From Caldisericia bacterium (GTDB taxonomy: Bacteria; Caldisericota; Caldisericia; UBA6126), in the NCBI GenBank assembly GCA_028700655.1, contig JAQVSG010000001.1, positions 40,507 to 104,506 of the forward strand: 64,000 bases of DNA. The letters are read 5' to 3'. Below are positions 9,245-33,409 of this stretch, in pieces. A program made the position numbers and the translations under genes. The notes beneath the pieces were generated by a model. It saw only the letters and a list, made by a program, of their open reading frames with translations, did no database searches and was not told where the DNA came from. Numbering within the stretch: the first letter of the stretch is position 1; each line of letters begins with the position of its first letter.

Positions 9245-10669
9245 TTACTTTTCAGACGTTCGTGGGGTTTTTTCCCAAAATTCTCTTTTCGCAGAGTAGG
9301 GTTTGTTTTGGAGTTTTTGATAAACAGAGAGTAAACTCCCACATATAAAGGGCAGTCCATATAGAAAACTGAAAAATGGCAATACAGTGACCATGTAGAG
9401 AGTGAGAAGAAAGAACTGAAATAGTTCGCAGACAGACCATTTATTGTATTGCATATAACGACGATAGCGAAGATACAAGGATTGTATAAATACGATACTG
9501 GTGCCCAAAAACAAGAAATACGAAACATCAAAACTAGAAATCGGAACACTTATTTTTTGGAGTGTATGGGATAGATAAAAAATAGAAAGGATTCCATATA
9601 AATACCACTCAATAGGACCCAGCAGAAACACTTTCCACAGCATCCAAGAGCGTTCTTTTGGGGTATGAAAAAAGGATTTGTTGGCATGCAATAGAACATC
9701 TATAATCCCTTTCCCCCAACGATATCGTTGAACAAAATAACCACGGAAATTGGCAGGAGTTTGTTCAGTACATACAATGGGAAGGAATTTTGGAATTGTA
9801 TTCCATTGATCCCATATTCGAATTCCCATTTCTATATCTTCGGTAGCACATGTAGCTTGAAAACCATGTAGATCTTGAATCATTGAATAGGGAATGTGCA
9901 TATTGGTTCCTCCTAAGAAAGGAATCCAACGCAACAGAGAAGGGAGTGTATAATCGTGAGAGAAAGCTTGGGCTAGAGCTGCAATTTTTGAAAACAAAGA
10001 AAGGTGCTTAAAATTACGTACTTGAAGAGCAGGTCCTTGCCAAACAGGCAGAGGCTCCTTTTTTGATGTGTGTTCTTGGATATACGAAAAAATGGATTCT
10101 TCTGCGTGTGTTTCTGCGTCAAAAAAACTACAGTAATGGTATGGATGTGAAAAGGAATGAACCGACAATGCATAGTTTAGGGCTCTTCCCTTGGAGGAGG
10201 GGATGAATTGATTTTTGTAGGAACCTGGAATCGTACCATCGTAGGTAATAGGAACATCTAAAATGTATATAGAGGGGAATGAATCCCCTTCAAAAAAAGA
10301 CTGATTTTTATCTTTGCCACTATTGGTTGGGTTGCAATTTTTTTCAATCCAGCGTTCCACCACCTTTCGAGTGGATTCATTTTTGTGGGCAATCGTTTCT
10401 TTTTGGTCTGTAATGAGGATGATTTCCTGTTTGTTTCTTGAATATTGTATCTGTAGCATGTTTTTGAGAGTGTTTGTGATGACAGAAGCTTCTTCTTTGG
10501 CAGGAATTAGAATGCTAAAGAACAGTTGATCATGAAGAGAAGAATAGAGAATTCTCTTGTCCGTATTTTTTTGGTAGGTACCCATGAGTACAAAAAAGAA
10601 AAAACGGATCGAAACCAAAAAACCGATGCTTGATAGGACTATATAAAGAATGTTTTGCCATGTATTCAT
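9245..10669 (-). CDS. Membrane-bound processive family-2 glycosyltransferase (polysaccharide synthase-like)
   Basis: 474 aa. N-terminal TM segment, ILIPAKEEASVI, SKGRALNYAL, FFDAETH (DxD-like), QRYRWGKG (QxxRW), C-terminal TM helices, ending FWEKTPRTSEK. Convergent with the previous gene, with a 12-nt gap. Confidence 0.85.
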   Translation of the reverse strand: MNTWQNILYIVLSSIGFLVSIRFFFFVLMGTYQKNTDKRILYSSLHDQLFFSILIPAKEEASVITNTLKNMLQIQYSRNKQEIILITDQKETIAHKNESTRKVVERWIEKNCNPTNSGKDKNQSFFEGDSFPSIYILDVPITYDGTIPGSYKNQFIPSSKGRALNYALSVHSFSHPYHYCSFFDAETHAEESIFSYIQEHTSKKEPLPVWQGPALQVRNFKHLSLFSKIAALAQAFSHDYTLPSLLRWIPFLGGTNMHIPYSMIQDLHGFQATCATEDIEMGIRIWDQWNTIPKFLPIVCTEQTPANFRGYFVQRYRWGKGIIDVLLHANKSFFHTPKERSWMLWKVFLLGPIEWYLYGILSIFYLSHTLQKISVPISSFDVSYFLFLGTSIVFIQSLYLRYRRYMQYNKWSVCELFQFFLLTLYMVTVLPFFSFLYGLPFICGSLLSVYQKLQNKPYSAKREFWEKTPRTSEK

Positions 10670-10720
10670 ACCAAGAAGTGTATCAAAAAAAGTGGAAAGG
10701 AAGAATTTTTTCCTGATATC

Positions 10721-10728
10721 TGTATAAT
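10721..10728 (+). promoter_or_regulatory. Candidate -10 box (TG-TATAAT) for a possibly leaderless GAF-gene transcript
   Basis: TGTATAAT at 10721-10728, with TATAAT at 10723-10728. The ATG at 10736 starts 8 nt after the hexamer. There is no Shine-Dalgarno sequence in between, and the -35 is poor. Confidence 0.3.
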
Positions 10729-10735
10729 ACTTATC

Positions 10736-11215
10736 ATGAAAGCAAAATATGAGAAACTTTTAAAAACGATTTCCGAAACCATTTCTGCGAACACGATTTG
10801 GAGATACACCCTAAACGATGTTGTGTTTGATCTAAAAAATGGAAATTCACGATACGATTGGGTAGGAATTTACTTACTTGACGGAAACACTCTTCGCTTA
10901 GAAACTTTTCTAGGGCATCCCACCGAACATACACTTATTGATCTTCCTAAGGGTGTCTGTGGAGAATCTGCCCATACAAAAAAATCGATGATTGTGGATG
11001 ATGTTACAAGCTGTGACAATTATATTTCGTGTAGCTTGTACGTGAAATCTGAAATTGTAATTCCCATTTTGCGAAACAATGAAGTATTGGGTGTCATTGA
11101 CATTGATAGCCACACAAAAGCAGCATTTACAAACGCAGATCAAACGTTCCTTGAAAAAGTGGCTTCTTTGATTGCTGACAAGGCTCCTTTTGTGCAAAAA
11201 CAGACACACCTCTAA
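10736..11215 (+). CDS. GAF domain protein (free methionine-R-sulfoxide reductase-like family)
   Basis: The track ORF is 10655..11215. The internal ATG at 10736 gives MKAKYEKLLKTISE. Family motifs: YDWVGIYLLDGNTLRL, KGVCGESAHTKKSMIVDDV, SEIVIPILRNNEVLGVIDIDSH. Confidence 0.8.
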   Translation: MKAKYEKLLKTISETISANTIWRYTLNDVVFDLKNGNSRYDWVGIYLLDGNTLRLETFLGHPTEHTLIDLPKGVCGESAHTKKSMIVDDVTSCDNYISCSLYVKSEIVIPILRNNEVLGVIDIDSHTKAAFTNADQTFLEKVASLIADKAPFVQKQTHL

Positions 11216-11277: not shown

Positions 11278-11306
11278 TGAACCTTTTCCACCCCTTACCC
11301 TATTAT
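11278..11306 (+). promoter_or_regulatory. Candidate ECF-type (autoregulatory) promoter upstream of the ECF sigma gene
   Basis: TGAACC (11278-11283), a 17-nt spacer, then TATTAT (11301-11306), 65 nt upstream of the sigma ATG. The same bipartite motif occurs at 22458-22487. Confidence 0.4.
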
Positions 11307-11370
11307 GAGTAGAAAACATAAGGCAGGTAAAGTATGAAATTGATCTTATCAGGGTTGATGAAGTAGTGTC

Positions 11371-11937
11371 ATGAATTTAACCCGTAAAGAAGAAAAAGAA
11401 TTAGTACTACGAGCAAAGCAAGGAGACTCAGAAGCTATGACTGTAATCTACAAAGAATTTGAACAAGAAATCTTACGAGCCGCTTATGGAGTTACAAAGA
11501 ATCCTGACGATGCACAAGATGTTGCAGCGGAAGCATTTATGACATTTTTTCAGACCATTGATCGTTTTAATACCGACTACCCCATCCGACCTTGGCTTCA
11601 TAGAATTATGCACAACCAGGCCAATTCTATGTTTCGGAAAAAGAATCGCGTTATCAGCAGTGGGGATTGTTTTGATAACTATACAATGGAACATTCTTCT
11701 CAAACCGATGAAAACCTTTTTGAAGAAGAAGACGTATCGTTGTTAAAGAAAGCATTGAATTTGTTGTCCATAGAAGAAAAGAAAATTTTAACTCTTTTCT
11801 ATATTGAAGACTTTTCCATCACAGATTTATCCGTCACACTCAACATTCCGGAAGGAACGGTGAAGAGCCGTTTGTTCAACAGCCGCAAAAAACTAGCAAA
11901 AAAAGTCCAACTTTGCAAAAAAGGGGGTGGATTTTGA
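11371..11937 (+). CDS. ECF (sigma-70 family, group IV) RNA polymerase sigma factor
   Basis: 188 aa. Region 2: DAQDVAAEAFMTFFQTIDRFNTDYPIRPWLHRIMHNQANSMFRKK. Region 4: LSIEEKKILTLFYIEDFSITDLSVTLNIPEGTVKSRLFNSRKKL. Confidence 0.92.
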   Translation: MNLTRKEEKELVLRAKQGDSEAMTVIYKEFEQEILRAAYGVTKNPDDAQDVAAEAFMTFFQTIDRFNTDYPIRPWLHRIMHNQANSMFRKKNRVISSGDCFDNYTMEHSSQTDENLFEEEDVSLLKKALNLLSIEEKKILTLFYIEDFSITDLSVTLNIPEGTVKSRLFNSRKKLAKKVQLCKKGGGF

Positions 11938-14177
11938 ACACCTGTAAACATGTAGAAAAATGGTTACGAGATCATCCTCAAGAGTCTTTGCCAAAATGGA
12001 TACAAAATCATATTCAAGGATGTTCTTCTTGTAAGCAGATTGTAGAGTCTTCTTCTCTTCTTCATACTTTTACCCCGGTTTCGCCTTCTTCAGCGCAATA
12101 CTCTTTCTCGCCAGAATTGGATTGGAAAATACGAAATTGTATCTATACAACGTCTGAAACGTTAAAAAACTCTCAAAGAATCGCGAAAAAAACAGTTTTC
12201 TATTTGCACCGAGGATTTGTCGCGACTTTATCGGCAATATGTTTAATAGTAGCTGTTTTTTTTATGGTACCTGTGGCCAACCAGAATACGACCTACTCTC
12301 TTTTGTTGAACGAGAAGTTTAAAGAAATGATGCAAACGCCTTCTTCTGTTTTTATGATGGAAGTAGATACCATGGAAACAATGGATGACCACTTGCAATT
12401 TGCACGTTACTATTGCGAAACAAAAGAAGAGCGGGAATTCTTATATAGCAATAATGAAGATAGTCGCAACAAACTCCTTTTTGTGAAGTTTTTAGGAATG
12501 CAGTCGGACGTATCGTATTTACAAATCTATCAATATGCACGAAATGATCTGTACTTTCAAGCTATACGAAAGGCCAAGCTTCCTCTTTGGAAAACTTGGA
12601 GAGAGTTTTCTTCCTATATTGAGCAATACACCTTGCTTCCGGGGCAACCCTTTGAATCTTTTGATGCCACTGTTTTGTCTGTGGATTATGCAACAGGAGC
12701 GATAAAAACGGATGTATTTACAGACCCCTTGTTTGCTGATTTTATTATCATGCAACAAGTAACTCCCTTTCGTACTTATCATTTCACAGTGAAAACAATA
12801 TCCTCACAAAACAACATTGTTGCTATTGATTTGCCTCGAGAAAACGATACTTCTTTGCAAGGAAAATTACTTTCTGTTACCAAAAATACAATACGACTGG
12901 AAGGATTCCCAGAGGATCTTTTTGTCAGTGAAAAAGTTCTTCATGATGAAACAGCAAATTCTTATCTTGAAAATGGGGAGTATGTATTTGTTCGTATTGC
13001 ACAAACCAACCAGAACCAGTGGGTTGTTACCTCTTTATCAGTATTACAAGAACCTTCTCCAAGAACTCTAACGGGAAAAATTGTTGAGGTGTACCGCAAC
13101 GGATTTGTCTTAGAGAACCTTGGAATGAGCTTTTTCTTTTCTTCTCCCACCACACCTACCATTTCTCAATATGATATTATTACTGTGCAAGGATTGGATT
13201 ATGGTTCCTTTTTCGTAGTTGAAAAGGTGCTTTCAATAGCCCCCTTCATAGAGGAAAAAGAAGACTATTATTTAGCTTCTCACAAGGAAGAAAAAACCAT
13301 TGCACGAGAGCCTGTTTTTACCCCTCCAAACAGATCCATATCGTCTCCTTCTCCTGTAAATCCTCCCGATCAAATGCCATTAGAAAGTGATATCGTCGTG
13401 GGTATCGATAAGGACCAGTATTATTTTTTAAGCGGGAAAACAGTTCCCAAAGATCAGCTTTCACAATCCCTATCCGCCGGTGAATCTATTCGATATCAGA
13501 GAGAGCAGAACAACATTACCATTCAACGACATTTTATGAATCAAACGCAAGTGGTGCAGTTTACTGTAGAATTTTTAGAACGGTTGCCCAATGGCATTGA
13601 AATTTATCATGCTCCACAAGATGGAAGTCGCATTTATGTCTTCCGCTCTTCTATGGCAGACAAAGGAAATGTTTCTGTGTTTCAAGGAAACGTGGTTTCC
13701 TATGGAACCATTCATATTGCTTTGGAATGGAGAATGTTTTCCTTATCCACTCTTGTCAACATTCAAGCTGTTGTTACTAAAGAAATTGAACGGAACTCTT
13801 TGTATCAATTGGATAATGGCTGTGTGCTAAAAATAGATGATTTCACAGAAATACAGGGCCATGTTCAAGTTGGGAAAACGGTAAAGATTTCGGGTCAATA
13901 TGATCAAAACGTTCTCCGTGGGTATATTGTCCGCGTGGAAAAAGAAATTTTTATGATGCAAGGAGAGATTGTTGATTGGAACAAGGAGCAAAAATGGTTT
14001 CTTTTAGACTCGGGTGTTGTCATTCAAATCCATGAAGCCACTATTTTTCATGGGCAGGGTGTATTAGGAGAGGGCATCTTTGTGTACTGCAAAGTATATC
14101 TGAAAGAAGGTCAATACGTTGCCTCCGATATTGCATGGGAAGAAAACTCAATTCCCGGAACAGGAGACCGCATATGA
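11934..14177 (+). CDS. Anti-sigma factor (zf-HC2 type) with one TM segment and a large extracytoplasmic domain
   Basis: The track start is TTG at 11913. I prefer the in-frame TTG at 11934, which follows AAGGGGGTGG (11921-11930) and overlaps the sigma stop as TTGA. N-terminal HIQGCSSC (Hx3Cx2C). TM segment FVATLSAICLIVAVFFMVPV. About 630 aa lie outside the membrane. Confidence 0.8.
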   Translation: MNTCKHVEKWLRDHPQESLPKWIQNHIQGCSSCKQIVESSSLLHTFTPVSPSSAQYSFSPELDWKIRNCIYTTSETLKNSQRIAKKTVFYLHRGFVATLSAICLIVAVFFMVPVANQNTTYSLLLNEKFKEMMQTPSSVFMMEVDTMETMDDHLQFARYYCETKEEREFLYSNNEDSRNKLLFVKFLGMQSDVSYLQIYQYARNDLYFQAIRKAKLPLWKTWREFSSYIEQYTLLPGQPFESFDATVLSVDYATGAIKTDVFTDPLFADFIIMQQVTPFRTYHFTVKTISSQNNIVAIDLPRENDTSLQGKLLSVTKNTIRLEGFPEDLFVSEKVLHDETANSYLENGEYVFVRIAQTNQNQWVVTSLSVLQEPSPRTLTGKIVEVYRNGFVLENLGMSFFFSSPTTPTISQYDIITVQGLDYGSFFVVEKVLSIAPFIEEKEDYYLASHKEEKTIAREPVFTPPNRSISSPSPVNPPDQMPLESDIVVGIDKDQYYFLSGKTVPKDQLSQSLSAGESIRYQREQNNITIQRHFMNQTQVVQFTVEFLERLPNGIEIYHAPQDGSRIYVFRSSMADKGNVSVFQGNVVSYGTIHIALEWRMFSLSTLVNIQAVVTKEIERNSLYQLDNGCVLKIDDFTEIQGHVQVGKTVKISGQYDQNVLRGYIVRVEKEIFMMQGEIVDWNKEQKWFLLDSGVVIQIHEATIFHGQGVLGEGIFVYCKVYLKEGQYVASDIAWEENSIPGTGDRI

Positions 14178-15835
14178 AAAGACTTTTTCAAATCATAACA
14201 ACAATCTATCTAACCGCACTCTTTTTCGTACCCATGCCTATGTCATTGCATGCAAACGAAGCTTCATCTGGATCGATTCGTCCTGTCCAAAAAACGCAGT
14301 GTAGGGTTTTGTTAAGCAATTACGAAAAAGGGGAGATAACCTCTATGGAATTTCGTCTTTCGCTTTCAGAAAACCCCATACTGGCCGAATCTTGGATTAC
14401 AATACTACTACCAGAATCGTACACGATCCCAGAATTGTTCCGGGAAGATTTTGTTTTCTCTGATACGGTTGCTTTACAGGTTCAAAGGAAGGGAAACAAT
14501 AACATACGAATTCAAACCCCTATCGATATTTCTGAAATCCTTACCATATCTATTTCTCACTATGCGGGGATTCAAAATCCATTGGAAGAAGATACTTTTG
14601 TATGTACTCTTCTTGTAGAATCTTGGGAGGAATTTTTTGAATCGGATTCTATACACCTTATTTCTCCTCAGAATTCCGTATTCTATGAAATACAAAACAA
14701 AATCAAAGCAAATCAACATGGATGGATGTCAGAAATACCAATCCTTCAATTGTATTCCAAAAAAGGAACCGAATTGTATGTTGCCTGGAATGAGGATGAA
14801 TTTCACAAATTGGAAAACCGTATTATTACAATACCCGAAGGGATTCATCGTTGTTCTTTTTATGGATTGCGCCCTTCTGGTCTAAAAGAAGAGATACAGT
14901 CTGTTCTTTGGAAAGTGGATCCGTATCCACCGTCCTGTATTGATGTTTCTCCTTCTCATCGAACCTGGATCAATACGCAAGATCCTTTGGTAAAATTTCA
15001 GATCACCTCCATTTCACCTGCTTTTCTTGTTATATCAGAAGAAGCATATCCTGTTCTAAACAATGAAGTGGAAATACCCTTGTCATTGAATCCTGGGAAG
15101 AATACTGTTTCTTACAGCATTGTCAATCAAGCGGGTCATAGTATCTCTGACGAACTCACTCTTTTTGTGGATATTACTCCTCCTGTTATTACCTTGTACT
15201 CCCCTTCAGAAGAACAGATATATTGCGGATACCATATGATTGTCAATGGAAAGACGGAGCCAGGATGCCTTTTATCTGTCAATGGGATAAAGTTAGAGAT
15301 GGACGCATATGGGAACTTTGCAACGGAAATTCCTATTGCGGAAGGAAAGAATAATGTTATTGTGCGCAGTGAAGATCGGGCAGGGAATGTTACGATCATC
15401 AGTAGAACCTTTTTTCACTATGCAGGGACTGTTTTTGAAATCCAATTGTCTCATCAGAAAGTTTTTTTGAATGAAAAGGAAATCTCGGTGGATCCATTTC
15501 CGTTTCGCGATCCCCAAAATGGCGAAATATATGCTTCCATTCGATTGTTTACGGAATCACTGGGGTATTCTTTACGATGGGATTCAAACTTAAATGCAGC
15601 TATACTAGACAAAAATGGAGTTTTGATTTATGTTCGACCCAATGATTCCATCATTAAAGTGTCTCAAGGAGACAATGTTGAAGAAATAGATATCTATTAT
15701 GCCCCCACCATTGTCGATGGCGTTATTTTTGTACCCATTGAATTTACGAAGAAAATACTTGGTTCCGAAGTAAAATACGATCCAAAACATGAATCTATTT
15801 TTATTATATTTTGTCCCGAAAGGAGTGAGAAATGA
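14174..15835 (+). CDS. Secreted surface protein: one FP-NP module plus the shared C-terminal cassette (OmpL47-like, Ig-like, CuAO-N pair)
   Basis: The ATG at 14174 (AGGAG at 14162-14166) overlaps the anti-sigma stop as ATGA. Signal peptide MKRLFQIITTIYLTALFFVPMPMSLHANE. Module exit ISHYAGIQNPLEEDTFVCTLLV. Ig-like DITPPVITLYSP...VIVRSEDRAGN. CuAO-N: GEIYASIRLFTESLGYSLRWD and DGVIFVPIEFTKKILGSEVKYD. Confidence 0.85.
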   Translation: MKRLFQIITTIYLTALFFVPMPMSLHANEASSGSIRPVQKTQCRVLLSNYEKGEITSMEFRLSLSENPILAESWITILLPESYTIPELFREDFVFSDTVALQVQRKGNNNIRIQTPIDISEILTISISHYAGIQNPLEEDTFVCTLLVESWEEFFESDSIHLISPQNSVFYEIQNKIKANQHGWMSEIPILQLYSKKGTELYVAWNEDEFHKLENRIITIPEGIHRCSFYGLRPSGLKEEIQSVLWKVDPYPPSCIDVSPSHRTWINTQDPLVKFQITSISPAFLVISEEAYPVLNNEVEIPLSLNPGKNTVSYSIVNQAGHSISDELTLFVDITPPVITLYSPSEEQIYCGYHMIVNGKTEPGCLLSVNGIKLEMDAYGNFATEIPIAEGKNNVIVRSEDRAGNVTIISRTFFHYAGTVFEIQLSHQKVFLNEKEISVDPFPFRDPQNGEIYASIRLFTESLGYSLRWDSNLNAAILDKNGVLIYVRPNDSIIKVSQGDNVEEIDIYYAPTIVDGVIFVPIEFTKKILGSEVKYDPKHESIFIIFCPERSEK

Positions 15836-18800
15836 AATCCATACGTTTATTTACAAAGATACGAACGGTTTTTTTCGTCGTTTTGTTTGTGTTCACCACT
15901 CTCATTCCATTGTATGCGAAAGCAGCCGTTACAAGAATCGAAGTAAGCCCCAATGTACAGTGTATAAAAATTGGCGAATCCGTTACTTTTACAGCAACTG
16001 CCTATGACGAAAATGGGTCGGTTGTACCAGAGGCGACATTTCGTTGGTACCAGGAAGGACCCGGAACGGGTTCTCCTTCTTCCAATACGCGTTCTTACAC
16101 TTTTCGGGCAACCAGTTCAGGTCAAGTCCAAATGTTTGTCTCCTCGGGGGACACAAAACTTGTTTTTCGATTTGATGTGGGAGCTACCCAAGTTCGCGAT
16201 GTTCAAATACGGGTGGAACCCAATACTGCCGGAGAACTAGCGAATTATACCGTCATGTTTTACACAGATGAATGTGGGAAATTAAGTCCTGGTGATAAAA
16301 TATATTTGGCTTTTCCCTATGGAACAACCTTTGCCCGTTATTCTGGGTGCGATGCAGTTACCGTGAACGGTATACCCGCTTCCTATTACGTGGAAACCGA
16401 TAAAAATGACAATCAAATTGTCTCGATCACGGTACCCAATTCCTACCCCGACACAACCCTTGTCTATATACGAATATGCCGCGTGCAAAATCCTCGAGGA
16501 GGAGCTTGCTATCGTATGGCTGCAGCCACTAGCAAGCAGCCTTATTGGGCTCTTTCCAACAGTTATGCGATTGTAGGCTCCATCATTACCACTCCCACCG
16601 TAGAAGTAGCCCCCGATATTGTAGGGGAAATAGCGGCATATACCATTCGATTTGAAACCTCTTCAACGGGACGATTGGGCAGTTGTTACGGGGGGTATAT
16701 CATGGTGGAGTTTCCTTATGGCACCAAAGTGCCTACCACTATTGCGGCGGAGCACATTTTGGTGAACGGACAGTATTGTAACGATGCCGACCCTGTTATA
16801 AACGGACGAGTTGTGAAAATATACCCAGGCATGGTTGTGCTAGAAGAGTCCGATGTAAAAGTAGAGTTTCTTTTAGAAGCCGGGATTACCAATCCAACAA
16901 GTTCGGATCAATATCGTTTGGTTGTGTGGACTAATGCCGACAATACAAGGGTCAATTCAAATTACTACAAAATACGCAACAGTGTTATCCAAGATGTAAA
17001 AGTATGGATTGACAAACCTTACATCAATACAAAATCGGAATGGAGAATCACTTTTCAAACTGGCTTAGTGGGGAGAATGAGAGAAAATGGAATCATTACG
17101 ATCTATTTTCCTTCTTCTGTTCGTTTCCCAGAATCATCAGTTCCTGGGGATATTAAGGTAAATGGGGTGCCCACCACAAAACCTGCCATTATCGAAGGAG
17201 CAGGGACATTGAAAATTCAAACCCCAGTTCTGTTTGAAGCACAGAGTCCCGTAGAGATTGTTATAAAGGAAGAGTTTGGTCTTACCAATCCTACATCGGT
17301 AGGTCGATACACCATTAAAGCGCACACAGGGAAAGAAGGAACCAATGTAGAATCCCAAGAATTTGAAATCGGTCCTAGCATGATTGGTGATCTGTCTGTT
17401 CGTATTGGATCTCCTTTTGTATCTGTGAATACATCGATTCAACTCACCTTTACAACGGGTGGTGGTGGTCAACTAACATCGGACAATGGGCAAGTGTATC
17501 TCATTATGCCCCAAGGAATGTATATCCCCAATACAATGGCAAAAGATAGTGTATTGATCAACAATGTTCCCATGAAAACAACACCTTTTTTGAAAAAGGC
17601 AGAGAATCGAATCATTCTCAATGTACCCATTGATATAGGTCCTGAAGCAGTAGTGACAGTCGACTTTTTACAAGAAGCAGGATTGCGAAATCCGGTCACA
17701 CCGGGTGAGTACATTTTTCGAGTGGCCACCAATCGAGAGGTATCTTACATTTCCTCTCCCAAAATTTGGATTCAAGAATCAAGGGTGCAAAATGTCTCTG
17801 TGGATGTTTTGTCCCGTACTGTTGAGCAACCAGCTTCTTTACATATTTCCTTCAAAACCGGCCCCGCTGGTTTTTTGAGTGCGGGAGAAAAAATATTTGT
17901 GTTTTTGGACACTCGTTTCCAGTTTCCCACCGATTATCAACACGGCATTCTATTCAATGAAATAAACGTAGACCTGTTTCCAGTTTTTCTAAAACCCAGC
18001 GAAGGCATGATACAGATTACCCTTCATGAAAACATCGAACCTCTCGAAACCGTTGTTATTCAAATCACTCCTGAAGCAGGCTTTGTGAATCCTTCACAAG
18101 AAGGTGCTTATACATTGGGTGTTTCTACGCAAAGTGAAACACAAACCGTAGCTTCTGAGCCTTTTTCGATTATTCCTTTACCAAAAACAAACATTACCAT
18201 TGAACCTACTTTCCCCGATGGAGATAACCAATGGTATGTGTCCAAGCCAAACATATCCTTCGATGTGTATTCCCAAGAACCAGAATCGATTCAAACCTGG
18301 TTTTCGTTAAATGGGGAAGATTGGATTTTGTATCAAGAGACTCTTGTTCTATCTTCTGGAATATACGAAATACGGTATTATTCGACACAAGGGGATGCAA
18401 AAGAGGAAATCCAATCCATACCCATTAAAATTGACACCTTCCCTCCCTATATACAACTACCCGAAGGCCCCATTTTTACCAATCAACCGATCTACCCATT
18501 TTCGGTTACTATTGTCGAATCTCATTTTCTTAAGGGTATGATTGGAGAGCATGAAGTACTCTCTCTTGTCGAGGGTCAAATGAAGGCGAACTTACGGCTT
18601 GAAGAAGGGGACAATGAATTCTCTATTTTGGTATATGACGAGGCGGGTCATCGAAGTGAAACAACGGTTGTTATAGTTTTAGATCAAACTCCTCCCACGC
18701 TTCAAATTAGCAAACCGTCTCCCTGGCAAAAAACAATTCGGAAAACAATTCCTATTGATGGATATACAGAATCAAATGTGGATGTAACCCTGAATGGAAA

Positions 18801-19317
18801 ACGTCTGTCTGTGGTAGATGGGAAATTTATGACGCAGTTTACCTGTACAAGTGGTATTAATGCTCTTGAGTTTATTGCAACGGATCTGTCTGGAAATGCA
18901 ACAAAGGCAATTGTTCCTGTGCAATACTACGAGAATTTCTGGGTACAATTCTCGATAGGTCAACAAATTGCCTCTTCCTCTATGGGAACACTGAATTTGG
19001 GGTCACCTATTTTTTTACAATCGTCTCATACTATGATTCCTTTAACTGTTTTTACATCTTTATTAGGCTGTGAAGTTGAGTACGAGCCCATTTTTCAAAT
19101 CATCACTGTGAGCAATCCTGATGGCAAAGTTATTCAAGCTCAAATTGGCAATACCACTGCCACTGTGAACGATGAAAAAAGAATTCTCCCAACTCCCCCT
19201 GTAATTCGCAATGGACGAACCTTCATTCCACTTCGATTCTTCGCTGAAGAATTCGGTTTTGTTGTACACTACATCAAAGAACAAAATGCTGTCAAAATGG
19301 AGTATCATGAGAGCTAA
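15832..19317 (+). CDS. Secreted surface protein: Big_2 domain, five FP-NP modules, shared C-terminal cassette
   Basis: 1,161 aa. The ATG overlaps the upstream stop as ATGA. Signal peptide MKSIRLF...LIPLYAKAAV. Big_2: RIEVSPNVQCIKIGESVTFTATAYDENG. Exit hallmarks: RVQNPRGGACY, AGITNPTSSDQY, FGLTNPTSVGRY, AGLRNPVTPGEY, AGFVNPSQEGAY. CuAO-N: VIRNGRTFIPLRFFAEEFGFVVHY. Confidence 0.9.
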   Translation: MKSIRLFTKIRTVFFVVLFVFTTLIPLYAKAAVTRIEVSPNVQCIKIGESVTFTATAYDENGSVVPEATFRWYQEGPGTGSPSSNTRSYTFRATSSGQVQMFVSSGDTKLVFRFDVGATQVRDVQIRVEPNTAGELANYTVMFYTDECGKLSPGDKIYLAFPYGTTFARYSGCDAVTVNGIPASYYVETDKNDNQIVSITVPNSYPDTTLVYIRICRVQNPRGGACYRMAAATSKQPYWALSNSYAIVGSIITTPTVEVAPDIVGEIAAYTIRFETSSTGRLGSCYGGYIMVEFPYGTKVPTTIAAEHILVNGQYCNDADPVINGRVVKIYPGMVVLEESDVKVEFLLEAGITNPTSSDQYRLVVWTNADNTRVNSNYYKIRNSVIQDVKVWIDKPYINTKSEWRITFQTGLVGRMRENGIITIYFPSSVRFPESSVPGDIKVNGVPTTKPAIIEGAGTLKIQTPVLFEAQSPVEIVIKEEFGLTNPTSVGRYTIKAHTGKEGTNVESQEFEIGPSMIGDLSVRIGSPFVSVNTSIQLTFTTGGGGQLTSDNGQVYLIMPQGMYIPNTMAKDSVLINNVPMKTTPFLKKAENRIILNVPIDIGPEAVVTVDFLQEAGLRNPVTPGEYIFRVATNREVSYISSPKIWIQESRVQNVSVDVLSRTVEQPASLHISFKTGPAGFLSAGEKIFVFLDTRFQFPTDYQHGILFNEINVDLFPVFLKPSEGMIQITLHENIEPLETVVIQITPEAGFVNPSQEGAYTLGVSTQSETQTVASEPFSIIPLPKTNITIEPTFPDGDNQWYVSKPNISFDVYSQEPESIQTWFSLNGEDWILYQETLVLSSGIYEIRYYSTQGDAKEEIQSIPIKIDTFPPYIQLPEGPIFTNQPIYPFSVTIVESHFLKGMIGEHEVLSLVEGQMKANLRLEEGDNEFSILVYDEAGHRSETTVVIVLDQTPPTLQISKPSPWQKTIRKTIPIDGYTESNVDVTLNGKRLSVVDGKFMTQFTCTSGINALEFIATDLSGNATKAIVPVQYYENFWVQFSIGQQIASSSMGTLNLGSPIFLQSSHTMIPLTVFTSLLGCEVEYEPIFQIITVSNPDGKVIQAQIGNTTATVNDEKRILPTPPVIRNGRTFIPLRFFAEEFGFVVHYIKEQNAVKMEYHES

Positions 19318-21142
19318 CTTCCTATATTCCTTGGCTTTTTTATGTTATGGAATCACATTTTTCCTTTTTATTCGTTTATTGATATGGAAAAAACTAAGTA
19401 AAAAATACTACTGGACAGCAAAATCGAAACTTTCACTTGCCGATGTAAAGATGATATCAGCTTTTGAGGACATACCACTTCCATTCATTTCTATTATGAT
19501 CCCTGCGAAAAACGAAAGCGCTGTCATCCGACACACTATTCACAATGCTATACACTTGAGTTATCCATCCCATCGATATGAGCTGCTTGTTATTGTAGAT
19601 GAAAGAGAACATATTGAAAATGAGAAGAGAATTGAAAAAGTATGGGAAGAAATTACCAAATGGAGAAAAGAAGTTGGGAATTCTCAACCATTTGATAAAA
19701 GAAGAGTAGATTTTTCTTTTAAATCCATTTCGAAAGAGTTACAACAAGCTGTATTGATGTACAAAATGAAGCATCTGTTATGGGGTCCTTTTTACCATGA
19801 ATTGTATGTAGAATTTTCGTCGACACTTTCTTATACATCCGATCCCTCTGTTTTGCATGCTCTGAAATGTTCTCTAGAAGAAGCGTTAAAGAAAATGCCC
19901 TACACTCGAAAAGATGTCAAAAAATGCTTAATGATATCCTTACAGAAAGCATTTCCCTCGACAGAACGTGTGGTTCTAAAGAAGATGATGTTGAAACTGG
20001 AAGAGACTATTTATTCTTTTGTGCATACAATTTCTATTCACGAATTGCAAGATATTACAAGAGACGACGTAAGAGATGCCTTTCCCACCACAAAGTCTAT
20101 AGCAGAAGATATGATGGAAGATGCTTCCAAACAAGGTGTAATGTTGAAGGTTGTTTCGGTTCCTACGAATTACACAGGCGTGTATCCTCGAACCTATACA
20201 AATCAGAATACCCATTCTACAAAAGGAAGAGCTCTAAATTATGCCCTAGACGAGGTAGATTCTTTGACAGATATAGTCGGGTTTTACGATGCCGAAAGTC
20301 GCCCGGACCACTCAGTTCTTCTGCACGTCGCCAAAGTATATTTGCAAAAGAAAGAAAACCTTCCCATTCTACAAGGACCTCTTTACCAAGTCCGAAACTA
20401 TTATACAATGGGTCTTGTTTCGCGCATTGGAGGTCTTTTTAAGGCCGTATCCCACGAGTGGTATCTTCCTATCATTTTTAAAAAAGTTCCGTTTGTAGGG
20501 GGTACCAATCTATTTGTTTCGAAAGCACTGCTGTTCAAAATTCACGGTTTTAACCCCGAGGCTTTAACCGAAGACTTGGATCTTGGGATTCGAGCCTATA
20601 TGATGCATAACGTTCATGTAGAGTTTCTGCCCGTGATTTCTACAGAGCAGACTCCTCCTTTTTGGAGTCAGTTTTTTAAACAACGATTGCGTTGGGCTTC
20701 AGGTCACCTGCAAGTGATGAGTGAGATACGAAAGACACACCGTGAATTATACTGGCAGTTGTTCTGGAAAGGACCTTTTGAGTGGGTTTTATACCAATTT
20801 TCTGCGATTGTTGTCATTCTTATGAATATCGGGTTTATAGTGTCTAAAATGGGGTGGATTCCAAAACAAATGATTCCTGTTAACCCTGTTTTACAAATGG
20901 TTCTTTTATTTATGAACATTCCTTACATTTTTTTCTCTTTTTACTGTTTTTATCACTACCAGTTCACTTTTGAAAAACATTTTCTATCACTGGATTCTTT
21001 TCCAGGAATGGAATGTATAAAACTAGTTTTATCGAGTGTGCTGGTGTTTCTTCTTCCTCTGCCCTATATCTGGGCGTTGATTCTTCACATTCTCGATAAA
21101 AAACCTAAAACCTGGGTGAAAACCCCAAGAACCTGTGAATAA
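19307..21142 (+). CDS. Membrane-bound processive family-2 glycosyltransferase, paralog of 9245..10669, with a large internal insertion
   Basis: The track start is 19211. I prefer the ATG at 19307 (MRANFLYSLAFLCYGITFF, a TM segment right after the start), which overlaps the upstream gene by 11 nt. 19286 is an alternative start. Motifs: IMIPAKNESAVI, STKGRALNYAL, FYDAESR, QRLRWASG, ending TWVKTPRTCE. Confidence 0.8.
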   Translation: MRANFLYSLAFLCYGITFFLFIRLLIWKKLSKKYYWTAKSKLSLADVKMISAFEDIPLPFISIMIPAKNESAVIRHTIHNAIHLSYPSHRYELLVIVDEREHIENEKRIEKVWEEITKWRKEVGNSQPFDKRRVDFSFKSISKELQQAVLMYKMKHLLWGPFYHELYVEFSSTLSYTSDPSVLHALKCSLEEALKKMPYTRKDVKKCLMISLQKAFPSTERVVLKKMMLKLEETIYSFVHTISIHELQDITRDDVRDAFPTTKSIAEDMMEDASKQGVMLKVVSVPTNYTGVYPRTYTNQNTHSTKGRALNYALDEVDSLTDIVGFYDAESRPDHSVLLHVAKVYLQKKENLPILQGPLYQVRNYYTMGLVSRIGGLFKAVSHEWYLPIIFKKVPFVGGTNLFVSKALLFKIHGFNPEALTEDLDLGIRAYMMHNVHVEFLPVISTEQTPPFWSQFFKQRLRWASGHLQVMSEIRKTHRELYWQLFWKGPFEWVLYQFSAIVVILMNIGFIVSKMGWIPKQMIPVNPVLQMVLLFMNIPYIFFSFYCFYHYQFTFEKHFLSLDSFPGMECIKLVLSSVLVFLLPLPYIWALILHILDKKPKTWVKTPRTCE

Positions 21143-21264: not shown

Positions 21265-22455
21265 ATGCGAATAGATCGATTTAAGGAACGGGACATTTTA
21301 AAACAAGTTGAACCGTATCGTGAATCGAAAGAAGCAGTAATTATCACAGGTATGAGGAGGACCGGGAAGACTACTCTTTTACAGTATTTATTCGAGACAA
21401 CGGAATCAGAGAACAAGCTTCTACTAGATTTAGAAAATCCGTTAAATCGAAAGTATTTTGAAGAAGAGAATTTTGATAAAATACAGGCTTCTTTAGAAAT
21501 TCTCGGTATAAATTTTAGTGAGCCTTCGTACATTTTTTTGGATGAGATCCAGCTATTTAAGAATATTCCGAGTATTGTGAAGTATTTTATTGATCACTTC
21601 CAAACGAAGTTTTTCTTAACAGGATCAACAAACTACTATACAAGGAAGCAGTTTGAAGAATCGTTGGCTGGTCGAAAGGTTGTATTTGAGCTATATCCTC
21701 TTACCTTTAAAGAGTTTATAAAATTCAGTGGAAAAGGTTTGAATCCTCCCACCCAAAAAAGTAGTATTTCCAGGCCCATTTTCGAAAAACTTTCTACTTT
21801 GTACGATGAATATATTATGTTCGGGGGGTTTCCCGAAGTTGTTCTGAAGCAAAGTGTTACGGAAAAAAATGCTGCTTTGGACGATATATTTCGATCGTAT
21901 TTTAATCTAGAAGTTGTGCAAATGAGCAATTATCGAAAAAGTGCTGTTATCCGTGATTTAATGCTTCTTCTTATGAACCGAGCCGGGGAGAGAATTGATG
22001 TTCAGAATATTTCGCAGGAGCTTGGAATATCCAGAGCTACTACGTATTCTTATCTGGAATTCTTGGAAGGCTCCTATTTCATTAAACTTCTCAAGCCCTT
22101 TAATCTAGGATCTAAAATGGAGATTCGGAAATCGAACAAAATCTATATTTGTGATGTAGGTTTGGTTCGTCATTTTGCCCACGCGGCAGAAGATTGTTTG
22201 TTCGAGAACAGTGTTTTTCAAAATTTGCGCACAAAATGTGATATAAAATATTATGAGAGAAAAAGTGGTACACAAATACATTTCATTTGCGATGATCAAA
22301 ACAATAAAGTAGCCTACGATACAGCACTTCACCCTCGCAAGACAGACCTAACAAGACTGTCTAGAATTGCTAGTGAAATCAATGTTGATGAGTATTCTAT
22401 CATCTCAAAATACTATTGTGATTTAGAACACACAATGTACGGCTTTATGGTGTAA
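21265..22455 (+). CDS. AAA+ ATPase with a DUF4143-type C-terminal domain
   Basis: 396 aa. Walker A ITGMRRTGKTTLLQYL, Walker B YIFLDEIQ, and a C-terminal region typical of the AAA_14/DUF4143 family. It looks more AT-rich by eye than its neighbours (not computed). Confidence 0.8.
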   Translation: MRIDRFKERDILKQVEPYRESKEAVIITGMRRTGKTTLLQYLFETTESENKLLLDLENPLNRKYFEEENFDKIQASLEILGINFSEPSYIFLDEIQLFKNIPSIVKYFIDHFQTKFFLTGSTNYYTRKQFEESLAGRKVVFELYPLTFKEFIKFSGKGLNPPTQKSSISRPIFEKLSTLYDEYIMFGGFPEVVLKQSVTEKNAALDDIFRSYFNLEVVQMSNYRKSAVIRDLMLLLMNRAGERIDVQNISQELGISRATTYSYLEFLEGSYFIKLLKPFNLGSKMEIRKSNKIYICDVGLVRHFAHAAEDCLFENSVFQNLRTKCDIKYYERKSGTQIHFICDDQNNKVAYDTALHPRKTDLTRLSRIASEINVDEYSIISKYYCDLEHTMYGFMV

Positions 22456-22457
22456 CA

Positions 22458-22487
22458 TGAACCATTTGTATAACAAATCCGTATTAT
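22458..22487 (+). promoter_or_regulatory. Candidate ECF-type promoter upstream of the giant-protein genes
   Basis: TGAACC (22458-22463), an 18-nt spacer, then TATTAT (22482-22487). This can also be read as TGAACC-N16-CGTATTAT. It lies 41 nt upstream of the ATG at 22528, with AAAGGAGG at 22513-22520. Confidence 0.4.
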
Positions 22488-22527: not shown

Positions 22528-25500
22528 ATGAAAAAAGGAATAGCCTTTATTGTCGCTTTTGTGTTAGCTCTTTCTCAGTTTGGTTTCTATACAGCCGTTA
22601 ATGCAATACATGCTATTGATGTTCTGGTTGTAAACCAAAGTGGCACAGACGATGTAGCCACAGGAGAAATTTCTGAATATACAATAGATTTTACTTTGGA
22701 TGAAGATGTAGCTCTTGATGATGTCATCAAGATCAAGTTTCCTACAGGTACCTCTTTTGTGAATGCAACCATCGACAAATCCAATGTTTTTGTGGACGGT
22801 ACCAATCCTACAAAAGATGCTACAGCATCGGGTACGATTCTTAGTATTCACACCCCTGCTGCCTACTCTGCGGGGGATATAATTTCTATCAATCTGCCCA
22901 TTGAAGCAGGTGTAAAAAATCCTTCCACCCAAAGCGGAAAATACAAACTGCAGGTGGGTACCTTTTTAGGGCCTAACGGGACAACGACCATCGAAAATTA
23001 TGACCAGTACTCCAACAATTACTATATTGGCCATCGATCGGAAGTTACGATTAGCCCCTCCGTAGATCCAAATTACAACACAGCAGGGGTTAAAAACATC
23101 AAAGAATTTGTAACGTGGACCATAAAGTGGAAAACTGGTAATCAGGGACACCTCACGGCTGGTAGCGATACAATAACCCTTGATTTTACTGGGAATACGA
23201 ACACTTTTCCAAAGCCAGATGGATGCTTTGACAACGGTTCTGGTGTTTATTTTATTCCGGCCACTTACATTCAAATTAACTCCAAAACACTAAAGAGTTC
23301 TGCCACTGCAACATTAAGCGGAGTTGCCCCAAACCAAACTCTTGATACAATCACCTTCACGATTCCCAATACACTTAGTGATATTTCTGCGAACGCAACC
23401 GTTACTATTATTCTGACCAATCAAGTAGGTATGTTTAACCCTCCCGCTGGGGATTATACTATCAAAGTAAATTCCAGCCGAGAAACAACCCCCATCTCGT
23501 CGCAGACAATTGCTGTTAATGATGCCGTATCATTTTATGATTTAGATGCCGTAAAAGCAGGTGTTCAGGGAGTTGTTGTAGATCCTCCCACAACGTCTAC
23601 CGTTGCCTCCTTCCAAATGGGAATCATTAACGACATCCCACTGTCCGTTGGCGTAGGTACAATAACCTTTGCCATGCCCATGACCATGACAGGAGTTCGC
23701 AACCCACCCATTACAGCAGTCCAATTTGAACATTCGATAGACGCTGGTGTAACCTGGGTTGAAACAACGTTAAAAACAGCTCCTATATTTACGGGTAGCA
23801 ATGTTGTTGTGACCGTTCCTTTAGATATTCCAGCCAACAGTCCTATCCGTGTTACTCTCACAAAAGATTTGAACATTAAAACACCCACCACCGCAGGCGC
23901 TTATAGTGTGCAAGCCATGACCTCGGCCCAACCCTATTACCGGAATTCTCCCACTTTTGCCATTGGTACAGGTGTATCGGGTGTAAAAGTAATTCCTTCT
24001 CCTGCCACCGATGATTCTGAAAATGTTCAGTATGTTGTTGAATGCAAATTAGGACAAAGTGGTGCTTTGTATAAAAGCACAGGGAAAATTTTTGTGGAAT
24101 TATTCCTCGGCAACGATCCTTTAACTTTCGATGGCATCACATTGTCCAATGGTTCTGTTTTCCTTGGAACTGGACAATATACAACCATTCCAACAGAAGT
24201 GGAAAGTCTTGGGGCAGGGATCTTTAAGTTTACGGTGTCTCCTCCACAAGACCTAAATGCCGGTGCCTCTGTAAAAATAACATTTAAACCCTCTGCAGGA
24301 TTCGTGAATCCTATTGCAGGTACATATAAAGGTATTGTTTACACCACGTCTGAGATGCTAGAATCCGAATCCGAATCGTATGAAATCCAAGATGCTATCA
24401 TGGTGGATGCGATTGATGTAGATCCTACCGCTGCAGGCGTAGATGCTGAATACACAATTACTGTGAGTATTGATGATAATCTTACCAAAAATATAGATAC
24501 TATATCTGTTGCTTTTCCTCAAGGACAAAGGCTTCCTACCACTATAACCCCGGGCGACATTTCCGTGGATGGTGTGGATGTCATATTATCCCCCAAGGTT
24601 TCCTCCAATGTCCTCACTTTTCATGTACCTATTGATATTCTCGCTGGTCCAACCTTTGATATTGTTTTGAAAAAATCTGCCAAAATTAAGAACCCAACAA
24701 CCGCTGGTATTTATAGACTGCAAGTAAATACATCCAAGCAAATTGCCTATCGCCTGTCCCCTCCCTTTAATATTGGAACCTCCGTAACGGGAATTGAAGT
24801 AATACCCTCTCCCGATACTGCCAACAGTGCCAATGTACAATACACAGTCAAATTCAAAATTGGTACCAACGGAGCGTTAACCGCAAACTCAGGCGATTTC
24901 ATATCCATTCAGTTACCCTTAGGAGAATTGCCAACGGCAGGCGCTTCTTCCATTACTGTGAACAATGATCGATGTATTGAAAACCCCACTATTACGGATC
25001 TTGGAGGAGGATTGTACGACCTTGAAGTGTATCCTCCCAAAGATTTGCGATCGGGTTCTCTTGTAACAGTAGTGTTTACAACTTCTGCTGGACTAAAAAA
25101 TCCGACGGAAGGAAACTATCGAATTACGGTCTTTACGAATAAAGAACCCATTCCTATGCAATCCGATATTTATTTAATCAAAAATGCCGTTGTCATCCAT
25201 TCTGTGGATGTAGAACCACCCGCTACAGGGGCAGAAGCAGAATACACAATAAGTATCGATATTGGGAAAAAACTGACAAAAGATATCGATACAATTACCA
25301 TTTCTTTTCCTCGCGAATCACGAATTCCTACCTCCATTAACAAGGGAAGTATTTCTATCGAAAACGATGGGGTTGTAAGAGATTTAACCCTTCCACCCAC
25401 CGTATCCAGTACTAGCATTACTCTAAAAGTTCCTGTAACCTATGATCCAACTCTCCCTGGGGCAGATCCTACTTTAATCATTGTTGTTAAACAATCTGCC

Positions 25501-33366: not shown

Positions 33367-33409
33367 CGACTTGTTGTAAAGTTTACTCCTACAACGAAGG
33401 AGGAAGGAC

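Follow-up and report, generated by a model that had tools for sequence, protein, structure and literature searches.

A conserved operon in the Caldisericota that probably couples an ECF sigma/anti-sigma pair to genes for part of the surface coat

In Bacillus subtilis, the extracytoplasmic function (ECF) sigma factor SigW is paired with RsiW, a zinc-binding anti-sigma factor that crosses the membrane once, and it is released by regulated intramembrane proteolysis, in which PrsW acts before RasP. ECF promoters are usually laid out with a GAAC-containing -35 element and a spacer that is fixed in length and free in sequence. Here, we describe a comparable system in a 64,000-nt stretch of DNA from a Caldisericia bacterium (GCA_028700655.1, contig JAQVSG010000001.1, positions 40,507 to 104,506 of the forward strand), which is referred to as the window and whose own numbering is used below. 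It contains a 9.8-kb block of five genes (Table 1), coding for an ECF sigma factor, an anti-sigma factor, two predicted surface proteins termed SurfA and SurfB and a membrane-bound family 2 glycosyltransferase (GT2). We consider it likely that this sigma/anti-sigma pair is encoded together with part of the surface coat that stands under its control.

The resemblance to SigW-RsiW concerns both proteins and their genetic setting. The best matches of the sigma factor among solved structures are 8z6g_B and SigW itself (5wuq_A), at about 1e-16 (9.5e-17 for 5wuq_A), and the HxxxCxxC motif of the anti-sigma factor aligns with that of RsiW at the same residue number. Further shared features are the overlap between the two genes, with their presumed co-transcription, a single transmembrane (TM) helix, a candidate GAAC-type -35 element with a fixed spacer and an M50 site-2 protease, which is encoded on the same contig. 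In contrast to RsiW, whose ectodomain is short, the anti-sigma factor described here carries a 633-residue ectodomain modelled as helical and OB-like (oligonucleotide/oligosaccharide-binding fold) domains; moreover, no PrsW homolog was found in the genome, the sigma factor stays below the SigW equivalog cut-offs, and the operon additionally carries coat genes and a synthase. ECF groups are defined by conserved genomic context, and this context, combined with a group-specific promoter, is the means by which they are recognised; one of them, ECF208 from the Spirochaetes, is described as 'associated to glycosyl transferases', and the Caldisericota go unmentioned in the main text of the same work (PMC7826278; Casas-Pastor et al., 2021). 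Our locus shares with ECF208 the combination of an ECF sigma factor, a putative anti-sigma factor and a conserved neighbouring glycosyltransferase, but it belongs to another phylum, and its GT2 is predicted to be a processive membrane synthase instead of the IDEAL-fused type. By analogy, the unit would work like SigW-RsiW and other ECF envelope modules and would represent a fairly ordinary kind of envelope control unit. What is specific here is the sensor made of DUF5666/OB barrels, the cargo of a processive synthase and immunoglobulin (Ig)-rod proteins, the predicted control of giant rods and the phylum. We know of no ECF system in which a string of DUF5666/OB-like barrels serves as the input domain.

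Table 1. Features of the operon and its surroundings, in coordinates of the window.
Feature	Position	Strand	Basis and remarks
Divergent GT2 paralog, 474 aa, without the insertion	9245..10669	-	Pfam; same position across the genus
GAF-only protein gene	10655..11215	+	Pfam GAF; precedes sigma in every locus of the order
Candidate ECF-type autoregulatory promoter	11278..11306	+	TGAACC 11278-11283, N16, CTATTAT
10-codon upstream open reading frame	11334..11366	+	AGGCAGG ribosome site of its own; stops 4 nt short of the sigma ATG
ECF sigma factor, 188 aa	11371..11937	+	Pfam Sigma70_r2 3e-13, r4_2 3e-12
Single-pass anti-sigma factor, 747 aa	11934..14177	+	C4/H26/C30/C33 cytoplasmic domain, TM 96-114, ectodomain
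SurfA, 553 aa	14174..15835	+	Signal peptide, about four Ig-like sandwiches, Glucodextran_B, C-terminal Cu_amine_oxidN1
SurfB, 1161 aa	15832..19317	+	Signal peptide, DUF2808/BslA-like modules, Glucodextran_B, Cu_amine_oxidN1
Membrane GT2, processive-synthase type, 611 aa	19307..21142	+	Pfam Glyco_trans_2_3
Same motif as the candidate promoter, TGAACC-N17-GTATT	22458..22485	+	42 nt 5' of the 3612-aa giant gene
Two tandem giant wall-anchored proteins, 3612 and 2546 aa	22528..41050	+	Pfam Cu_amine_oxidN1, DUF2808; 43-nt gap

The five genes follow each other on the plus strand, each overlapping the next, as established by a listing of the open reading frames (ORFs) and a reading of the junctions. 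The sigma gene starts with an ATG at 11371, and its TGA stop codon (11935-11937) overlaps the TTG start codon of the anti-sigma gene at 11934 as TTGA, with a strong AAGGGGGTG ribosome site located 6 nt upstream of this TTG. ATGA overlaps join the anti-sigma stop codon to the SurfA ATG at 14174 and the SurfA stop codon to the SurfB ATG at 15832, and the TAA of SurfB (19315-19317) ends 11 nt into the GT2 frame, counted from its ATG at 19307. An original prediction for this stretch, made from the sequence alone, had claimed overlaps at all four junctions, and every coordinate was confirmed; its assignment of the genes to the ECF sigma, surface protein and GT2 classes likewise agrees with the Pfam matches. 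Since M1 is invariant in the ortholog alignments at the starts chosen there, and since relatives carry an ATG at the position of the window's TTG, these starts can be taken as fixed, in preference to those of the longest ORFs, which lie earlier, at 11913 (anti-sigma), 14135 (SurfA) and 19211 (GT2).

The sigma gene has no Shine-Dalgarno sequence of its own and is preceded by a short leader ORF (uORF), whose AGGCAGG ribosome site and initial ATGAA are invariant in the genus and whose peptide sequence is not conserved. Within the genus, the end of the uORF always lies at or just before the sigma start. Its position there, together with the missing ribosome site of the sigma gene and the four overlaps, suggests translational coupling along the whole unit. 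In one relative (L020), the uORF runs across the sigma start codon. Taken by itself, the run of overlaps was rejected as a signal: in a crude gene set of the source genome, a metagenome-assembled genome (MAG) of 1.95 Mb and 89% completeness, 321 of 1009 same-strand neighbour pairs (32%) have overlap-type junctions, and runs of at least four such junctions occur five times, so that a run of this kind is statistically not special. What appears to go beyond chance is the retention of both gene order and tight junctions in every relative examined. The original prediction had named a terminator splitting the block as a point that would speak against it; on the plus strand, no terminator-like site beyond the level of shuffled sequences divides the five genes.

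Comparison with relatives, whose gene calls are ORF-based, shows how far this arrangement extends. Among 93 genomes of the phylum, 14 have a detectable homolog of the anti-sigma factor, and all 14 belong to two families of one order; when 1.84 billion representatives were searched exhaustively with a profile, only 18 proteins were returned at E <= 1e-10. The relatives bearing the anti-sigma factor are Caldisericota/Caldisericia MAGs, apart from one 'Calditrichota bacterium' and one plain 'bacterium'. The order GAF-sigma-anti-sigma-SurfA-SurfB-GT2 is found in ten loci from four genera and two families (f1 and f2), with the GT2 gene usually followed by an AAA/DUF4143 gene and then by a giant gene (ten loci). 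The sigma/anti-sigma junction measures -4 nt (negative values denoting overlap) in all 11 f1/f2 loci and also in one locus of a further family, f6. The anti-sigma/SurfA junction is -4, or +1 in family f2, the SurfA/SurfB junction ranges from -4 to +29 across loci, and the SurfB/GT2 junction is -11 in eight of the ten f1/f2 loci that hold it, with values of -17 and -8 in genus g2. GT2 orthologs also occur in f6, where the whole five-gene module is present in the same order: the f6 sigma factor is 36% identical, SurfA-like and SurfB-like proteins lie alongside it together with the GT2, and the only f6 locus in which all four junctions were read (L058) shows spacings of -4, -4, +4 and +3. The f6 counterpart of the anti-sigma factor comprises 750-760 residues, with an HxxxCxxC motif and one TM helix, and in one case (P0077) it matches DUF5666 significantly (48.7 bits, cut-off 27). 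When aligned with the family profile (hhalign), it showed an out-of-register similarity of the barrels only (40%); its correspondence thus appears to be positional and architectural, with orthology not following from the alignment.

The individual components have diverged to different degrees. Between genera, sequence identity amounts to 21-28% for the anti-sigma factor, 28-30% for SurfA, 42-49% for the sigma factor, 42-51% for GT2 and 47-49% for SurfB, with SurfB and GT2 tying as the most conserved cargo within f1/f2 and SurfB being about 26% identical in f6. The flanks vary by lineage and include the GT2 paralog, the AAA/DUF4143 gene, an M6 peptidase with a dockerin domain, an NTP transferase and an Mrr-like gene, whereas the five genes appear to constitute a conserved core. 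The arrangement posited by the original prediction is therefore kept, in its order, in three Caldisericota families, and these comparisons support the notion that the sigma/anti-sigma pair and its cargo form one anciently conserved, tightly packed unit.

Judged by its domain content, the sigma factor is a bona fide ECF. Its 188 residues fall within the range of about 170-220 that is typical of this class, Pfam detects regions 2 and 4 alone, without region 3 or region 1.1, and the TIGR02937 score of 80.9 bits lies well above the cut-off of 42.9; none of the equivalog cut-offs in NCBIfam, including that of SigW, is reached. Elsewhere in the genome, a second ECF sigma factor of 189 residues (C18:30039-31849; L045:3039-4849, minus strand) shows a stop/start overlap with a gene for a 413-residue protein, which matches no family, and the two probably represent another sigma/anti-sigma pair.

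In the anti-sigma factor, the residues C4, H26, C30 and C33 form a C-x21-H-x3-C-x2-C motif that is invariant in 11 orthologs, with the rest of the cytoplasmic domain varying. A single TM helix (residues 96-114) is followed by 633 residues outside, in line with the ectodomain of about 630 residues originally claimed. The AlphaFold2 model places N-terminal helices at residues 2-13, 21-29, 31-44 and 60-111. Searches with the N-terminus of the family profile yielded weak matches to nine small single-pass proteins, one of which passes the zf-HC2 threshold and two of which match this family below threshold. By motif and layout, the protein can be regarded as similar to the zinc-binding anti-sigma (ZAS) factors, rather than as a demonstrated Pfam member. 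A single-sequence search of the PDB returned GH88 as its sole match, which was dismissed as being at chance level. The structure models, here and below, were built from alignments of 10-11 sequences, and that of the anti-sigma factor has a mean pLDDT (predicted local distance difference test) score of 72.9, with the barrels alone reaching 80-89. In this model, residues 120-231 fold into a helical domain; three small barrels come next (241-436), and a disordered Pro-rich linker (440-479) separates them from a second set of four (484-735). Foldseek relates the ectodomain to OB-fold arrays (bS1, the cold-shock domains of Unr and EF-P) and to the periplasmic OB protein CusF. These matches agree with those to DUF5666 (PF18914), which remain below the cut-off (24.4-25.4 bits; cut-off 27), and a protein with eight DUF5666 copies was matched by the anti-sigma family profile at 6e-7. 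The ectodomain is thus modelled as a helical domain followed by about seven OB-like, DUF5666-type barrels.

The first two cargo proteins, SurfA and SurfB, both begin with signal-type N-terminal helices and match Cu_amine_oxidN1 (PF07833) with 57.5 and 82.5 bits, respectively (cut-off 24.2). The AlphaFold2 model of SurfA (pLDDT 87.7) consists of a chain of Ig-like sandwiches with the wall module at its end, and Foldseek returned tandem-Ig rods as well as the S-layer proteins EA1 and Sap of Bacillus anthracis. SurfB has its DUF2808/BslA-like modules in common with the neighbouring giants, showing 23-29% identity to the modules of the 3612-residue protein. About 20 loci in the genome have a C-terminal module composed of Glucodextran_B and Cu_amine_oxidN1, which is presumably the general anchor of this lineage. 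SurfA and SurfB can be classified as Ig-rod proteins that carry the usual C-terminal wall module of the lineage, with a predicted attachment to the wall. Proteins containing PF07833 are known from a Gram-positive surfaceome and from wall hydrolases (PMC4137172); literature searches on the envelope of the Caldisericota gave nothing usable. Omp85/BamA was not detectable in the genome, with control genomes behaving as expected, so that the organism is probably monoderm, and its secreted proteins would then be associated with the wall.

The third cargo protein, GT2, has the characteristics of a processive membrane synthase. Residues D98, D328-A-E330, T421-E-D423 and Q459-R-x-R-W463 are invariant in 11 sequences, and the GT-A domain is flanked by hydrophobic/TM helices, one N-terminal and three C-terminal. 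With its DxD-like DAE, TED and QRxRW motifs and its flanking TM helices, the protein resembles BcsA and PgaC/IcaA. Unlike these synthases, it lacks a PilZ domain, has no BcsB/PgaB-type partners in its operon, is instead accompanied by Ig-rod wall proteins and contains a helical insertion of about 160 residues (~104-262) within the GT-A domain, which is present in g1, g3, f2 and f6 and missing in g2 and in the divergent paralog (9245-10669). Its best PDB profile matches are the BcsA cellulose synthases (2e-4), which were reached by the profile alone, the single-sequence search giving no match. Since its scores lie far under the cut-offs for both PgaC_IcaA (TIGR03937; 52.2 vs 422.3 bits) and the cellulose synthase CelA (TIGR03030; 31.2 vs 699.1 bits), it was filed as neither a poly-N-acetylglucosamine synthase nor a cellulose synthase. 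We regard it as a GT2 of the processive membrane synthase type, whose flanking TM helices could form a channel. A conserved W-x-KT-x-RT-x-E tail ends both GT2 paralogs.

Comparison of the upstream regions lends good support to a putative autoregulated promoter of the ECF type and to a regulon with selected giant surface proteins among its members. Across the six loci of genus g1, TTGAACC and a TATT box 16 nt further on are invariant upstream of the sigma gene, with a T-rich spacer and flanks that vary. The same motif precedes the gene for the 3612-residue giant, where TGAAC is invariant in seven loci from three genera and the spacers are divergent. Genome-wide, the strict pattern TGAACC-N16/17-(G/C)TATT has 12 hits, vs about 5.5 expected by base composition, and only three of them are intergenic and at most 66 nt from a gene start, namely those at the sigma gene, the giant gene and a gene on another contig (C106) for a 2206-residue protein with Glucodextran_B and Cu_amine_oxidN1. 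At this last gene, TGAACC-N16/17-GTATT is found at the same place in 11 of 11 orthologous loci from three genera, again with unconserved spacers. Two loci of family f6, which played no part in the definition of the motif, have TGAACC-N17-GTATT directly upstream of the sigma gene, with unrelated spacers and as the sole hit per 16-19 kb; the probability of such a match by chance, estimated from base composition, is about 1e-4 per 200-nt upstream region. The motif is not found upstream of the genome's two other ECF-size sigma genes. Two looser patterns, TGAAC-N16-18-CGTA (37 hits) and TGAACC-N16-18-TATT[AT] (19 hits), gave mostly intragenic matches and were dropped, and a fourth candidate member of the regulon at C120 was rejected, as its motif falls within an ORF that extends without interruption from the edge of the contig.

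From the placement of the motif, we infer that it is read by the ECF sigma factor of the operon. The regulon would then probably reach beyond the 9.8-kb block, to the giants at 22528-41050 and to the 2206-residue protein on the other contig. In this respect, the original notion of a regulator hard-wired to its own cargo was right in that the genes form one conserved, tightly packed unit and too narrow in its extent. The accompanying claim that cargo output rises with sigma activity is supported by the conserved motif upstream of the sigma gene, which fits autoregulation. Both g2 genomes have a strict TGAACC-N17-GTATT within the coding region of the sigma factor instead, some 240 nt ahead of where the anti-sigma gene starts (L022:3402-3429, L025:3450-3477). 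This site may be a relocated promoter, in which case only the anti-sigma factor and the cargo may be sigma-dependent in this genus.

These elements can be combined into a model of how the system may work. At rest, the cytoplasmic, zinc-type helical domain of the anti-sigma factor would keep the sigma factor at the membrane. The membrane-proximal helical domain and the approximately seven OB-like barrels of the modelled ectodomain would act as a sensor, which most likely monitors the condition of the wall or coat. Upon activation, a site-1 protease would cleave the anti-sigma factor, and the M50 site-2 protease would then free the sigma factor. As suggested by the conserved motifs, free sigma would transcribe its own operon, providing positive feedback along with SurfA, SurfB and GT2, and its output would also include the tandem giants downstream and the 2206-residue wall-anchored protein elsewhere. 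The overlapping start and stop codons would link the five products and the leader uORF at the level of translation. GT2 would act as a processive, membrane-embedded beta-glycan synthase, and the SurfA and SurfB rods would be fixed to the wall. In g2 and f2, the interval between the GAF and sigma genes holds a gene for a secreted, dockerin-bearing metallopeptidase of the M6 (immune inhibitor A-like) type, and f2 additionally has a sugar-nucleotidyl transferase at this place (L022:1335-3008, L024:610-2262, L024:2277-3254). It is conceivable that the metallopeptidase is a candidate for the site-1 protease and the transferase a candidate supplier of precursors.

It is tempting to speculate that the system constitutes a checkpoint for coat assembly, in which the barrels bind the nascent glycan made by GT2 or the SurfA/SurfB lattice, such that the sigma factor is freed when the coat is missing or damaged and switches on its own operon and selected giants; the evolutionary rate of the ectodomain would then reflect co-evolution with a variable surface ligand. 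This more specific scenario is doubtful at present. The anti-sigma ectodomain does evolve far faster than the cargo (21-28% identity between genera vs 42-51% for SurfB and GT2), and it is unalignable in f6, with its architecture kept. The rapid change of both the ectodomain and SurfA is compatible with the original idea that the cargo could take part in the sensing complex, and equally with simple exposure at the surface, so that it favours neither.

Several observations weigh against control of the coat by this sigma factor. In g2, g3 and f2, the motif was not found ahead of the sigma gene, which there follows a GAF gene or other genes, and in the source genome it is carried by only two of the 79 ORFs of at least 900 residues, leaving 77 without it. 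The window's own site upstream of the sigma gene reads CTATT, not GTATT, and it also fits the sigma-70 pattern at 9 of 12 positions. Given that the -10 part of the motif is AT-rich and sigma-70-like and that the genome encodes at least two further ECF-size sigma factors, the motif could be read by another sigma factor, either the housekeeping one, acting on an unusual -35 element, or a different ECF, with the giants and the 2206-residue gene lying outside the regulon. We nevertheless consider this unlikely, because the motif precedes this particular sigma gene in two distant lineages and neither of the other two ECF genes of the genome, because 12 strict hits in a genome are far too few for a housekeeping promoter, and because a GAAC-containing -35 element, combined with a fixed spacer length and free spacer sequence, corresponds to the usual ECF layout. 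A further complication is that, in g2 and g3, a GAF gene with a sigma-70-like TATAAT promoter lies 38-70 nt before the sigma gene and may head the unit in these two genera. This arrangement would suit a generic envelope-stress switch that merely sits beside coat genes, with the cargo transcribed mainly from internal or housekeeping promoters, for which the sequence leaves room, and with the close spacing reflecting genome compaction, as the abundance of overlap-type junctions and of runs of them in this genome would allow. Such a reading is quite improbable, given that three families have retained the order of the five genes despite turnover among the neighbours, and that the junctions stay within -17 to +29 nt throughout.

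The identity of the 747-residue protein is likewise subject to counterevidence. Pfam zf-HC2 (PF13490) is not matched even at E 10 when the N-terminal 117 residues are searched in isolation, and RsiW, although the top PDB profile match and aligned on the motif, reaches a non-significant E of 0.31. In its length and modular build, the ectodomain resembles the surrounding surface proteins, so that the protein could primarily serve the structure or assembly of the coat, as a membrane-anchored string of barrels that does not regulate a sigma factor and whose Cys/His motif has another role. This possibility is very remote in view of the 4-nt overlap with the sigma stop codon in 11 of 11 f1/f2 loci and one f6 locus, and of a size, a single TM helix and an invariant N-terminal C...HxxxCxxC at the position seen in RsiW that together correspond to the class I/ZAS layout; in addition, the profile of the N-terminus picks up small proteins with a single membrane pass, a few of them matching zf-HC2. 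The original designation as a zf-HC2 anti-sigma factor lacks a direct Pfam match and is backed only by the Cys/His motif, the weak alignment with RsiW and the transitive matches. As concerns the proposed release pathway, a PrsW-type site-1 protease was not found in the genome. On balance, we favour the view that the sigma/anti-sigma pair controls the coat genes encoded with it.

The operon is set in a surface-protein island. Upstream of it lie a gene for a 2218-residue C25 peptidase fusion, the divergent GT2 paralog, whose product is 34% identical to the operon GT2, and the GAF gene; downstream, the AAA/DUF4143 gene is followed by the two giants of 3612 and 2546 residues. The distance between the GAF and sigma genes is 38-155 nt in g1, g3 and one g2 genome and 1-2.7 kb elsewhere, where genes are inserted. 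The longest GAF ORF overlaps the start of the divergent GT2 paralog by 15 nt (window 10655-10669), and alignments of its orthologs start at residues 7-26, with the true start probably located 20-75 nt farther downstream. The AAA_14/DUF4143 ATPase gene between GT2 and the giant (21265-22455) is far better conserved than its neighbours: its product shares 98.5% identity with that of a relative in which the anti-sigma factor has 70% identity, and identities between genera amount to 58-61%. A sigma-70 promoter close to consensus (TTGACA-17-TAAATT) precedes the gene and stops 6 nt short of its ATG. About ten diverged paralogs are scattered through the genome, and the gene is absent from the module in f6. 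The 79 ORFs of at least 900 residues in the 1.95-Mb genome, nine of which exceed 1900 residues, make up an unusually large coding share. Relatives with similar sets of giants contain dozens of frames of 2000-3700 residues, and giants are encoded on C29, C127, C44 (the contig that holds the window), C106 and other contigs.

For the ECF field, the module probably represents one more context-defined group, with value for annotation rather than as a new concept. Hardly any Caldisericota have been cultured, and next to nothing has been described of their cell envelope. For this phylum, the module would constitute a concrete regulatory circuit, composed of a sigma factor, an anti-sigma factor, a promoter motif of defined sequence and no fewer than three candidate target loci, and it offers a candidate type of sensor domain in the form of a string of DUF5666/OB-like barrels. 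Moreover, it ties a processive glycan synthase to Ig-rod wall proteins and may thereby indicate by what means the outer coat is made in this lineage.

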